Origin: a virus
Lineage: Duplodnaviria; Caudoviricetes
Direction: 5' to 3' (one strand)
DNA length: 61,338 nt
IMG/VR virus record: IMGVR_UViG_3300036944_001020
Span: 1 to 61,338 of that record
The notes under the pieces were generated by a model. The model was not told where the DNA came from and made no database searches. It saw only the letters and a list, made by a program, of their open reading frames with translations. Of this stretch, positions 58,590-61,257 are shown piece after piece. The first letter of the stretch is position 1. Every line of letters begins with the position of its first letter. The translations under genes and the position numbers were made by a program.

Positions 58590-58847
58590 TTATTTTCTAG
58601 ATAACTTATCACTCAGATTACTTTTATAGTTATTGCCATTAATTTTTGACAATACCTCTTTAAATCCGCCATCAACCTGACGAATTCCCAATCTTACGGG
58701 GTCACCAAATGCTGGCATAGCAGTATGGTGATGCTCATATTTTTTTGAGTTGCATTTTGGACATTGCTGATCATCTTTATCAGCAATTCTACACATGACT
58801 GTAAAAATTTCATCACAGTCTGAGCACTTAAAATCATAAAACGCCAT
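58590..58847 (-). CDS. FmdB-like zinc-ribbon protein
   Basis: MAFYDFKCSDC...CPKC. Confidence 0.82.
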   Translation of the reverse strand: MAFYDFKCSDCDEIFTVMCRIADKDDQQCPKCNSKKYEHHHTAMPAFGDPVRLGIRQVDGGFKEVLSKINGNNYKSNLSDKLSRK

Positions 58848-59172: not shown

Positions 59173-59376
59173 TTAATCCGATAATGCATAGGGAGTGAAA
59201 AGATCATACACCATATTAACCGAGAATGTTGGTGTGTACTTAGTTTTAAGTTTTAAAACTTTTTCTTTTGCAGCTTCAAGTGTTTTTTCATCCAAATAGA
59301 CCCCTACGATTGAGGTCTTTCTGCATCGTTTAATACGGTCAATATATTTGACCTCAAGGATGTATTTTTCTACCAT
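59173..59376 (-). CDS. Hypothetical protein (probable start MVEKY at 59376)
   Basis: ORF track 59173..59448; the ATG directly follows the dsbA stop. Confidence 0.65.
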   Translation of the reverse strand: MVEKYILEVKYIDRIKRCRKTSIVGVYLDEKTLEAAKEKVLKLKTKYTPTFSVNMVYDLFTPYALSD

Positions 59377-59377
59377 A

Positions 59378-59659
59378 TTATGGATTGGTAGTACTAGCCA
59401 TTGCGGTAGTATTCGTGATTGTTTCGTACATTGTTTCAAATTCTTCATTCTCTTCTTTTTCTTGAGTGAAGTTTTGCTTATGGTATACTTTTACCATTTT
59501 ACGAAATGTTTTCTTGGGTAGTTCAAATTGTTTACAAATATCTGTAACTGCTTCTTTAATAAAATCTCGTTCTCCTTCAACTCGCGTCATAGAATTTGAA
59601 ATTTCCTTAATGCATTCATTGATTGCTTTACGATCTGCTGGACTACTTGGAATTGGCAT
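59378..59659 (-). CDS. dsbA: T4 DsbA-like dsDNA-binding protein
   Basis: IKEISNSMTRVEGERDFIKE...KTFRKMVKVYHKQNF; GGAG SD. This is the phage dsbA, not the disulfide oxidase. Confidence 0.8.
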   Translation of the reverse strand: MPIPSSPADRKAINECIKEISNSMTRVEGERDFIKEAVTDICKQFELPKKTFRKMVKVYHKQNFTQEKEENEEFETMYETITNTTAMASTTNP

Positions 59660-59690
59660 AAAATCTCCATTATAAAATTACAGGGAATTC

Positions 59691-59719
59691 ATTGTATCAC
59701 ATTGCATATAAAAAGTCAA
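59691..59719 (-). promoter_or_regulatory. Sigma70-type promoter for dsbA
   Basis: TTGACT (59719-59714), 17 nt, TACAAT (59696-59691), with an extended TG. Confidence 0.8.
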
Positions 59720-59823
59720 ACTATTTTTTATCAAATGCTCTGTACTTATGAAAGTTTACTGTTCTACTATCAAAATTTGGATCACGTGGAATATCTTCAT
59801 ATGAGACAGACCACGGATTCGTT

Positions 59824-59894
59824 GGTTCTTCTAATATCGGTTTACGTAGAAAGCGAGAGAAGAACCCAATTACGCTTTCGACAAGGCTAAAGGG
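59824..59894 (-). promoter_or_regulatory. -1 programmed ribosomal frameshift signal (slippery heptamer plus H-type pseudoknot)
   Basis: In-frame C CCU UUA (59894-59888), 8-nt spacer, stem 1 GAAAGCG/CGCUUUC, stem 2 GGUUCUUCU/AGAAGAACC. Confidence 0.8.
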
Positions 59895-60370
59895 GCTGCT
59901 GCCTTTTTTACTTTCTCTGCTTTTTCAGTTTTTACTTCTGGCACAGGTACAGGTAACAAATTTGGAAATGCTTCTCTAACCAAATCTTCGGTCAATGACT
60001 TGTATTTCTTGCTCAATTGTCTATCTTTTGCTAAACAAACAACTTCGGATTCTTTCCAATGAAGTCCTTCAAGCAACTGAACAAACAATGCTTCTTTTCT
60101 AATTTTAGTTAGATTGGATGGATTCAACCAAATGTAGAATCTGCGAAATTCTACGTAAAGATTGGTGTCAGAATATCCATCTGGAATGGAGGTATCTTTT
60201 TTAAATGGTGGTTCGCCTTCTGGCAATCCCATGTTAGCATTTGGATCGAAATTGATCTGTAGAATACCTTGTAGAACTTGGGTACTATAATCGCGTAGAA
60301 CTTTAACTTTTTCTGCGCGTGTTTTATATTTTTCTACTTCTTCAAAAATTTGGGGGACTGTTGTTTTCAT
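59870..60370 (-). CDS. Conserved T4-like hypothetical protein (frameshift-extended isoform predicted to 59721)
   Basis: NFDP...LPEGEPPFK, LYVEFRRFY, EALFVQLLEGLH..E and VREAFP; follows rnh. Confidence 0.85.
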   Translation of the reverse strand: MKTTVPQIFEEVEKYKTRAEKVKVLRDYSTQVLQGILQINFDPNANMGLPEGEPPFKKDTSIPDGYSDTNLYVEFRRFYIWLNPSNLTKIRKEALFVQLLEGLHWKESEVVCLAKDRQLSKKYKSLTEDLVREAFPNLLPVPVPEVKTEKAEKVKKAAAPLALSKA

Positions 60371-61257
60371 TAAAACTCCGTAATAACGTCAAGCATGTTT
60401 TTCATCTTATTGACAATAAAATAATTTAGCAACTTACTTCTATCCTTTTTGGGTTGCTCCATATATGTATTTATAATCAATTCCTCAATCTCTTTTGGTA
60501 TACTTGAGAAATCAACAAGTTTTTTATTCTGTTCATACCGTTTAATAAATGCATCATCTTGTGGCATAGTAGATGGATCAAGAATCCATTTTTCTAGCTT
60601 TTCAGTCATAATTGACTTTTGTCTAATCCCATCAACTAAACTATTATCGGGCGATAGTACATTTGGAATCCCATCTCCAGTATCTCCACGAACAATATGC
60701 TCAATGATATAATCTTTTGGCTTTCTTTCTGAAACAATAAATTTCTTTTGTACCGGAGAATATTGTTTTACATTCTTGTATTGGTGTAGCTGTTTAAAAT
60801 CATGGTCGCCAGAAAGAACGAGAAATGGCTTTGGATCAGATTCAAATACAGTGCCGGAAGAAAAATCATTGGTCTGTGACCACTTTGCAAGAGTAGCAAT
60901 AACATCATCTGCCTCTGCTCCCGGCACATCAATTACTTTATAAGGAAAGTGAACGTGTAGATCTTCTTTGACTTGATTCAGTGCAGTGAAAATGACTTCC
61001 CAATCTAGTCCAGTATCGTCCCTTGATTTTTTTCTATTCGCCTTATAGTGAGGAAAAAAGTCTCGTCTCCAATAAGAATGATTATCACAGGCAATTACTA
61101 GTTCACCATATTCATTTTTAAATTTTGCATTATAACCACGAATACTATTCATAATCATATAACGCATCAACGGAACATCTAGTTCAATATCTTTTCTGCC
61201 ATTCAATTCCAACATCACATTAGAGATTGCGGTTTGATTAAAGTCAACTACCATCAT
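60370..61257 (-). CDS. rnh: T4 RNase H (5'-3' exonuclease)
   Basis: VVDFNQ, YWRRDFFPHYKANRKK, EADDVIA, SGDHDFKQL and GDTGDGIPNVLS. Confidence 0.95.
   Translation of the reverse strand: MMVVDFNQTAISNVMLELNGRKDIELDVPLMRYMIMNSIRGYNAKFKNEYGELVIACDNHSYWRRDFFPHYKANRKKSRDDTGLDWEVIFTALNQVKEDLHVHFPYKVIDVPGAEADDVIATLAKWSQTNDFSSGTVFESDPKPFLVLSGDHDFKQLHQYKNVKQYSPVQKKFIVSERKPKDYIIEHIVRGDTGDGIPNVLSPDNSLVDGIRQKSIMTEKLEKWILDPSTMPQDDAFIKRYEQNKKLVDFSSIPKEIEELIINTYMEQPKKDRSKLLNYFIVNKMKNMLDVITEF

Follow-up and report, generated by a model that had tools for sequence, protein, structure and literature searches.

The DUF6433 gene of a T4-like phage most probably uses a programmed -1 frameshift near its end to make two proteins, of 166 and 216 amino acids. 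The phage is represented by a 61,338-base IMG/VR virus record (IMGVR_UViG_3300036944_001020, estimated completeness 36%), the whole of which was analysed and is called the window here; it encodes the Gp23 capsid, the Gp20 portal, Gp5, gp32 and a PhoH-like protein. The gene (59870-60370, on the minus strand, as are all window elements below unless stated otherwise) encodes P0001, a 166-aa protein with an all-alpha DUF6433 domain at residues ~1-145 and a Lys-rich disordered tail. Most ribosomes would terminate at the TAA at 59872-59870, giving the 166-aa protein. A fraction would slip one base back at a C_CCU_UUA heptamer (59894-59888), at an A_AAA_AAG heptamer (59909-59903), or at both; 8 nt past C_CCU_UUA begins a pair of stems, of 7 bp and 9 bp, that is compatible with a pseudoknot. 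Shifted ribosomes would go on for 55 or 60 codons in the -1 frame. The resulting isoform of 216 aa would have a short amphipathic helix and, at its C-terminus, a conserved peptide that ends in Y-R-A-F-D-K. Both the shift and its frequency are things that we infer.

The 3' end of the gene reads GCC CCT TTA GCC TTG TCG AAA GCG TAA. The heptamer C_CCU_UUA lies in the zero frame over codons P160-L161 (59888-59894), and a spacer of 8 nt (59880-59887) separates it from the 5' arm of stem 1 (S1), GAAAGCG (59873-59879). This arm makes seven perfect pairs (with 59855-59849) to the 3' arm CGCTTTC (59849-59855), the hairpin alone having -8.0 kcal/mol. Stem 2 (S2) consists of the 5' arm GGTTCTTCT (59858-59866) and the 3' arm AGAAGAACC (59824-59832), with nine perfect pairs (to 59832-59824) and -10.2 kcal/mol as a hairpin alone, and is present in the minimum free energy (MFE) fold. 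Together S1 and S2 have an H-type topology with loops of 6, 2 and 16 nt, and the zero-frame stop TAA (59870-59872) lies in loop 1 of the proposed pseudoknot. The -1 frame is opened by a TGA at 59925-59927, which is the upstream limit for any shift, and none of its 67 codons from TGA 59927-59925 to TAG 59723-59721 is ATG, GTG or TTG. An initial annotation of the window had described this heptamer, spacer, pair of stems, loop placement and open, start-less -1 frame, and all of these were confirmed base for base. What it had overlooked is that a second candidate slip site, A_AAA_AAG, is found in the zero frame over codons K155-K156 (59903-59909), inside the open -1 frame and 15 nt upstream of C_CCU_UUA. 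The -1-frame extension coding region (59721-59909) has 62 codons from A_AAA_AAG and 57 from C_CCU_UUA, ending at the TAG at 59723-59721. A shift at either heptamer gives a product of 216 aa, and the two versions differ at residues 157-161 only.

Relatives of the gene were collected by scanning IMG/VR with P0001. This matched 151 stretches, of which 118 encode relatives and the best 80 (55-72% identity) were kept; a metagenome scan added 63 loci, many of them the same contigs under different names. Related loci from both sources are given L-numbers here, and contigs recovered from public runs are given X-numbers. In every one of the 80 IMG/VR loci (the best 80 of 118), a homologue of the 55-aa -1 peptide is found just 3' of the gene (tblastn, expect value (E) 6.6e-14 to 0.021). 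Read against the gene, the peptide has the -1 frame in all 80, with 19-136 nt of overlap at the gene end. The extension profile (alignment A1), built from 32 of the same sequences that were later searched, matches 116/146 sequences; the complete ones among them number 115, and the -1 frame holds for 115/115. The complete loci collapse to 54 distinct gene ends, with overlaps of 19-136 nt (median 49). The consensus of the extension is (K)K-x-G-F-F-E-R-I-L-x-x-F-K ... W-S ... P-x-D-P-x-Y-D-S-R ... Y-R-A-F-D-K, in which W, D, R, F and D are invariant. The window extension has the amphipathic helix and then the conserved W-S..P-x-D-P-x-x-D-S-R..Y-R-A-F-D-K tail.

The way in which the extension varies also bears on whether it is translated. 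The ratio of non-synonymous to synonymous changes (pN/pS) is 0.61 in the extension frame, compared to 1.03 and 1.13 in the other two (codon-position entropies 1.03, 0.87 and 1.34), from an alignment that was built in the -1 frame and therefore favours that frame somewhat. A close relative, contig X3, has 23 differences from the window in 345 nt. Eight of these are substitutions in the part that codes for the extension only (59724-59869), six being at third positions and synonymous in the -1 frame (by codon reading) and two non-synonymous; the coding part has no indels save for one 9-nt in-frame deletion upstream. It could be argued that there is no recoding at all, that the 166-aa protein alone is made, and that the -1 open reading frame (ORF) is a relic or is kept for RNA structure or regulatory DNA, and the region does indeed precede a strong promoter-like site. 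Such an explanation is very hard to reconcile with conservation at the amino-acid level accompanied by third-position variation, with a pN/pS of 0.61 compared to about 1.0-1.1 in the other frames, with a 6:2 excess of synonymous substitutions in the close relative, and with a frame that stays open in 115/115 loci at 55-72% protein identity, and we regard it as highly improbable. An artefact of assembly can be set aside, because contig X2, from an independent run, is identical to the window over 59773-59998.

The 9-nt deletion removes three codons (59916-59924) from a Lys/Glu-rich linker just upstream of A_AAA_AAG; it is found in X3 and X6 (and, at 59921, in X21), and thus changes the length of the linker in frame without touching either heptamer. 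The close relatives have the two heptamers and the four stem arms exactly as in the window, and the 8-nt spacer has three substitutions in X3 and X6 (59880, 59883 and 59884).

A different proposal is that the extension is a separate small protein, made by termination-reinitiation (coupling) or from a non-canonical start, and not joined to the DUF6433 protein. One lineage does look like this: L079, L104 and L110 have no heptamer, and a TAATG overlap gives a 46-aa ORF that is reported by gene callers (P0002), while in L080 an ATG lies 8 nt past the stop. For the family as a whole the evidence points the other way. In none of the 54 distinct ends does an ATG, GTG or TTG occur after the -1 ORF opens and before the conserved peptide begins, and the -1 ORF of the window has no start codon in its 67 codons. 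The conserved peptide starts upstream of the zero-frame stop in 53/54 ends, and reinitiation after termination is for this reason excluded there. In addition, slippery heptamers in the overlap are far above chance (53 compared to 5.8 expected). A separate protein is thus an unlikely explanation of the arrangement. On these comparisons, the -1-frame peptide is a real and selected coding sequence that has no start of its own and begins upstream of the zero-frame stop. The two isoforms (166 and ~216 aa) of the initial annotation are in this way supported, both by the frame of the peptide in 115/115 loci and by the heptamers in 53/54 distinct ends.

The extension is missed by gene callers. Among 1.84 billion representative proteins, eight match the extension profile, these being six fragments of 37-46 aa, one 93-aa -1-frame ORF and one weak 564-aa match, and there is no in-frame form of ~200 aa among them. 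A nucleotide search of GenBank phages with 59600-60400 gave no match, and tblastn of the 55-aa extension against GenBank phages gave four weak, unrelated-looking matches (E 0.01-7), so that no cultured phage with the extension was found in these searches. Scanning IMG/VR with the window's extension peptide gave 16 pattern matches, none of which was confirmed, and no relative above 72% protein identity was found in IMG/VR and the metagenome contigs. The cyanophage homologues (S-PM2 and S-SZBM1; ~144 aa) have no extension, and the next gene abuts.

Slip sites were then compared across the family. A zero-frame X_XXY_YYZ heptamer lies within the overlap in 53/54 distinct ends, the 5.8 expected being derived from the gene-body rate (39 per 6564 in-frame positions). 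The commonest class is A_AAA_AAN, found in 47 of the 54 ends (41 without C_CCU_UUR and six with it). Five ends have C_CCU_UUR without A_AAA_AAN, one has G_GGA_AAC, and one has none. Of the A_AAA_AAN copies, 36 lie exactly 28 nt ahead of the stop. In the ends with G_GGA_AAC, or with C_CCU_UUR without A_AAA_AAN, the overlap is merely 19-28 nt. C_CCU_UUG is the only heptamer in L075, L076, L078 and L107.

The heptamer of the window itself, C_CCT_TTA, is found exactly, 13 nt before the stop, in a diverged subclade (L114, L117, L118, L119, L123 and L145; 54-64% identity) with overlaps of 16-40 nt. In L123 and L145 (overlaps of 19 and 16 nt) C_CCU_UUA is the sole slip-site candidate; it is also found in L114 and L117-L119. 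The extensions of this subclade start P-F-S-L-K-S-L-W, and in this resemble that of the window, which starts P-F-S-L-V-E-S-V. The subclade is missed by the extension profile at E <= 1e-3, the matches to L117, L119, L123 and L145 being weak (E 0.005-0.16) and that to L118 having E 14. On the tree, at least three changes are needed for a label of C_CCU_UUR only, and at least four for a label of A_AAA_AAN plus C_CCU_UUR. The window itself falls in an unresolved basal polytomy, with L001 nearest. The tree and its alignment (A2) cover the genes that start with ATG, which ORF calling required, and so leave out the GTG-starting L010-type group (L010, L022, L023, L030, L048, L052 and L054), which is counted in all of the frameshift tallies; L081 and L082 were excluded from A2, and any protein longer than 200 aa entered the tree shortened to 170 residues. 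In L010 (2489-2512) and the six other L010-type loci, the DUF6433 gene starts with GTG, 5 nt after AGGAATTTTAAA, and not with ATG. A further locus, L122 (1030-1620), has an in-frame TAG after residue 133, followed by a normal tail in frame, a C_CCT_TTA heptamer and an extension-like -1 ORF; the TAG could mark a pseudogene, an error or stop read-through.

The heptamers are accompanied by putative stimulators. An uninterrupted helix of at least 8 bp starts 4-9 nt past the heptamer in 41/53 distinct ends, compared to 9.8% of 6564 control positions; a duplex energy of -10 kcal/mol or below is reached at 0.67% of control positions. At least eight different helices occupy the post-heptamer position across the family, and they differ between subclades. 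They include TTCTTTGAAC/GTTCAAAGAA (loop of 13 nt), GGCTTCTTTG/CAAAGAAGCC (loop of 46 nt), GTCCCTTT/AAAGGGAC (with CCCTTT inside the stem), AACCTTCCTT/AAGGAAGGTT, AGTGGTTT/AGACCACT, and AGTCGCTCT/AGGGCGGCT, which follows C_CCU_UUA in L117 and L119. In many subclades the heptamer is also preceded, at a distance of 7-12 nt, by a Shine-Dalgarno-like element whose pairing with the anti-Shine-Dalgarno sequence has -7 to -12 kcal/mol. Such an element also lies upstream of C_CCU_UUG in L075, L076, L078, L107, L108 and L116, and in the first four of these it is AGGGAGGU, 11 nt ahead of the heptamer. In most relatives the heptamer is A_AAA_AAR, and a stem begins 4-8 nt past it.

These findings bear on the suggestion that the shift takes place at the RNA level, with RNA polymerase slipping on the A run and adding one A so that the mRNA is in frame. 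Bacteria are known to show transcriptional slippage on runs of A or T, and most of the relatives do have a run of 6-8 A at the site. However, transcriptional slippage sites are long homopolymer runs of ~9 or more A or T, and the runs here are shorter, the window having A6 and most relatives A6-A7. Homopolymer runs are absent where C_CCU_UUR or G_GGA_AAC is the only heptamer of a lineage. Moreover, the flanking elements, a stem after 4-9 nt and a Shine-Dalgarno-like sequence 7-12 nt before the site, are of the kind that stimulates ribosomal shifting. RNA-library contigs (X21) have no added A, which is a weak argument, as contigs drop rare variants; these contigs cover parts of the region, their coverage does not show transcription, and the gaps in it carry no information. 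We regard slippage of the polymerase as very unlikely.

Of the two heptamers of the window, C_CCU_UUA is somewhat favoured as the slip site, being at the correct spacing from the only strong structure in the window and the sole candidate in L123 and L145 of the related subclade. A_AAA_AAG, as the family's main and commonest site, is a serious competitor that we judge rather less likely, and use of both sites appears improbable. An E. coli study (PMC4066793) reports that C_CC.U_UU.A and C_CC.U_UU.G are under-represented in E. coli and shift at more than 0.10% without stimulators, and ranks the V_VV.A_AA.R class among the most efficient in that organism. The choice of C_CCU_UUA in the initial annotation is upheld to the extent that the heptamer is unchanged in close relatives and the sole candidate in L123 and L145; A_AAA_AAG, 15 nt upstream, could also serve.

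The pseudoknot proposed in the initial annotation is statistically unusual. The summed duplex energy of S1 and S2 is -19.7 kcal/mol, and this is matched by 0/2734 control positions (0.1% quantile -15.3), the controls being positions within these genes with the structure placed 4-9 nt past the site. S1 by itself is unremarkable, about 23% of control positions carrying a helix of at least 7 bp. The close relatives are identical to the window over 59837-59879 and over the 3' arm of S2, where about three changes would be expected at the local rate, and this absence of changes fits constraint. The 5' arm of S2 falls on the conserved Gly-Phe-Phe codons of the extension, as the 5' arm does in most relatives. 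The predicted pseudoknot shows no covariation, and it is not conserved as such in distant relatives, where other stems are found. An Rfam scan found no frameshift element, giving one chance snoRNA match at E 9.5. A terminator-like element on the plus strand (59889-59908) was considered as a stimulator and rejected, its G-T pairs turning into A-C mismatches in the mRNA sense.

A number of observations weigh against a programmed frameshift, or against its details in the window, and are set out together here. No Shine-Dalgarno-like element was found upstream of either heptamer of the window (-2.9 kcal/mol for A_AAA_AAG and -3.8 for the other), and no good stem follows A_AAA_AAG directly, the best helix 4-9 nt downstream having 5 bp. 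The nested fold of 59815-59895 is ordinary (MFE -13.9 kcal/mol, z = -0.62, with 51/200 shuffles folding as well or better), in a test that cannot score a pseudoknot. The pseudoknot is without covariation, since its arms are free of substitutions in close relatives and distant relatives use other helices. The stem signal across the family could partly be a by-product of the peptide sequence, because many of the stems pair Phe-Phe with Lys-Glu codons, which are complementary by composition. According to PMC4066793, the U_UUA and U_UUG tetramers alone are just 1.8- to 3.6-fold over background in E. coli. Where the heptamer is missing (L079, L104 and L110), the ATG that overlaps the stop makes a separate 46-aa product possible. 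Finally, the loci are related and many of the metagenome loci duplicate IMG/VR loci, so that the counts are not independent events, and the profile behind the 116/146 and 54-end counts derives from 32 of the same sequences.

The proposed signal can be compared with known systems. The dnaX signal consists of A_AAA_AAG with a Shine-Dalgarno-like element ~10 nt upstream and a stem-loop ~6 nt downstream. Most of the relatives resemble E. coli dnaX in having A_AAA_AAG with a Shine-Dalgarno-like element ~9-11 nt upstream and a stem 4-6 nt downstream; this tripartite arrangement is present in many of them (for example the L007, L010, L031 and L065 groups) and absent from the window. As with tau and gamma of dnaX, one gene would give two isoforms of a protein associated with DNA replication or repair. 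The dnaX and DUF6433 proteins are unrelated, however, and the dnaX shift stops almost at once and gives the shorter product, while here the shift would lead to a longer product with a conserved module. The combination in the window of C_CCU_UUA, 8 nt and S1/S2 would be like the sites of the IS3 family (IS911 and IS3) and of viruses that use pseudoknots, in which 5-9 nt separate the heptamer from an H-type pseudoknot. It is unlike them in that the window pseudoknot is predicted only, and the relatives mostly have simple or long-range stems. 

A phage parallel is the tail chaperone pair G/GT, which also has a -1 frameshift near the gene end, a C-terminal extension and a position conserved across divergent phages. 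The SEA-PHAGES report (PMC10885494) gives 2397/2476 joined genes as tail chaperones, and annotated phage frameshifts there are nearly all of this kind. The locus in the window is not of the tail-chaperone type: in contrast to G/GT, the DUF6433 gene lies in the replication or early region, its neighbours being the T4-type RNase H gene (rnh; PF02739 and PF09293; 60370-61257) and a DsbA-like regulator gene (dsbA-like; PF11126; 59378-59659) and not tail tube or tape measure genes. The proposal in the initial annotation of recoding outside the tail-chaperone context agrees with this placement. For T4, the available portion of the review by Atkins et al. (PMC5009743) has gene 60 bypassing as the only recoding. 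Literature searches, which did not extend to supplements, found no report of frameshifting in a DUF6433 gene and no paper on DUF6433. The mechanism is of a known kind, and the gene family and its context are new. More than 100 related contigs of uncultured phages share the arrangement. If the reading is true, the replication/repair genes of T4-like phages include one with a conserved -1 frameshift that standard gene calling has overlooked, and the annotation rule for the whole family would be to join both ORFs. The family would also provide a naturally occurring set of slip sites and stimulators that replace one another, on which the evolution of frameshift signals could be followed.

It remains to consider what the protein and its extension might do. 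P0001 matches Pfam DUF6433 (PF20025) over residues 8-121 (E 6.8e-29, 100.6 bits, cut-off 38.9) and phrog_461 (E 2.7e-39). Searches of NCBIfam, PDB sequences and the ESM Atlas gave nothing beyond DUF6433, the PDB sequence search yielding a chance match only (E 0.057). AlphaFold2, run with a 42-sequence alignment, predicts an all-alpha domain (predicted local distance difference test score (pLDDT) 85.1) and a disordered Lys-rich tail at 146-166 (pLDDT <50). The predicted fold of residues ~1-145 resembles the DNA-binding domain of T4 DNA ligase (5wfy and 6dt1). In Foldseek, T4 DNA ligase and its isolated DNA-binding domain are the best PDB matches, 5wfy having template modelling (TM) scores of 0.62 (query) and 0.75 (target) over 136 columns with probability 1.00, and 6dt1_A having E 3.6e-3 and probability 1.00; Prochlorococcus, Rhizobium-phage, archaeal and human ligases follow. 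Sequence identity in these matches is 13-14%, the Foldseek E values are only 3.6e-3 to 9.4e-3, and P0001 has no match to PF04675 at E <= 0.01.

The 61-kb window has no match to PF01068, and no ligase was found in it. In relatives, L147 (1105-2430; also L148 and L149) has on the same strand as the DUF6433 gene, and ~2.5 kb downstream of it, a gene for a 441-aa ATP-dependent DNA ligase that is complete, with an N-terminal, an adenylation and an OB domain; the ligase search in relatives covered loci other than the long contigs L094 and L119. A split ligase, with DUF6433 as its separated DNA-binding domain, was considered and rejected, the 441-aa ligase of these relatives having its own N-terminal domain. 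For the same reason, the structural models indicate that DUF6433 is a stand-alone paralogue of the DNA-binding domain of ATP-dependent ligases, without adenylation or OB domain.

The extension modelled alone has one predicted helix (residues 7-20, pLDDT ~70) and, after it, a tail without structure. With a hydrophobic moment of 0.78 the helix is strongly amphipathic, as had been suggested from the sequence in the initial annotation. We infer that the extension may be a partner- or membrane-binding module that tethers the DNA-bound protein, membrane binding having been raised in the initial annotation. A predicted complex of the DUF6433 domain (residues 1-145) with the extension scored 0.00 without controls, and has no bearing either way. 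The peptide does behave as a separable module, to judge from the L079 lineage, where it would be translated from an ATG of its own at the overlap with the stop. For DUF6433 a first functional handle would thus be at hand, namely a DNA-binding fold of the ligase type that can carry a docking tail or do without it.

These points can be joined in a tentative scheme, which we consider possible but less likely than not. A mostly freshwater clade of uncultured T4-like phages would use frameshifting to set the ratio of two forms of a ligase-like protein that binds nicks or duplexes, following the logic of dnaX tau/gamma. The tail, with its amphipathic helix and Y-R-A-F-D-K, would be a portable docking peptide that tethers the DNA-bound domain either to the membrane or to a partner in the replisome or in repair, and in one lineage it would have been freed as a translationally coupled 46-aa gene. 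The slip signal would have been rebuilt at least three times (A_AAA_AAR, C_CCU_UUR and G_GGA_AAC) with different stimulators.

It is worth adding that the marine homologues L125-L130, which have no extension, have Lys/Arg-rich tails with AT-hook-like motifs, R-G-R-P in L127 and L130 and R-G-K-P in L129. These tails fit DNA binding, as far as their sequence goes. L125-L130 nest in the tree on a long branch beside the C_CCU_UUA subclade, which may be a long-branch artefact. Two distant homologues of 305 and 342 aa (L130, 66-980, and L131, 1201-2226) have a DUF6433-like N-terminus and a long C-terminal part in frame.

The 166-aa gene is followed in the window by ~150 nt without a called gene. Beginning 2 nt past the extension stop and lying ahead of the dsbA-like gene is a near-consensus sigma-70-type promoter (59691-59719; TTGACT, 17 nt, TG-extended TACAAT; 10/12 matches). 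In X3 and X6 its spacer has gained 1 nt behind 59704 and lost 1 nt at 59708, the length staying at 17. A 91-aa ORF without a family match (59173-59448) shares 71 nt with the 3' end of the dsbA-like ORF, which lies on the same strand; translation of the 91-aa ORF may really begin further downstream, or the two ORFs may be a second case of overlap. Downstream of the dsbA-like gene there is an 85-aa FmdB-family CxxC zinc-ribbon protein (TIGR02605, E 8.1e-11), encoded at 58590-58847.

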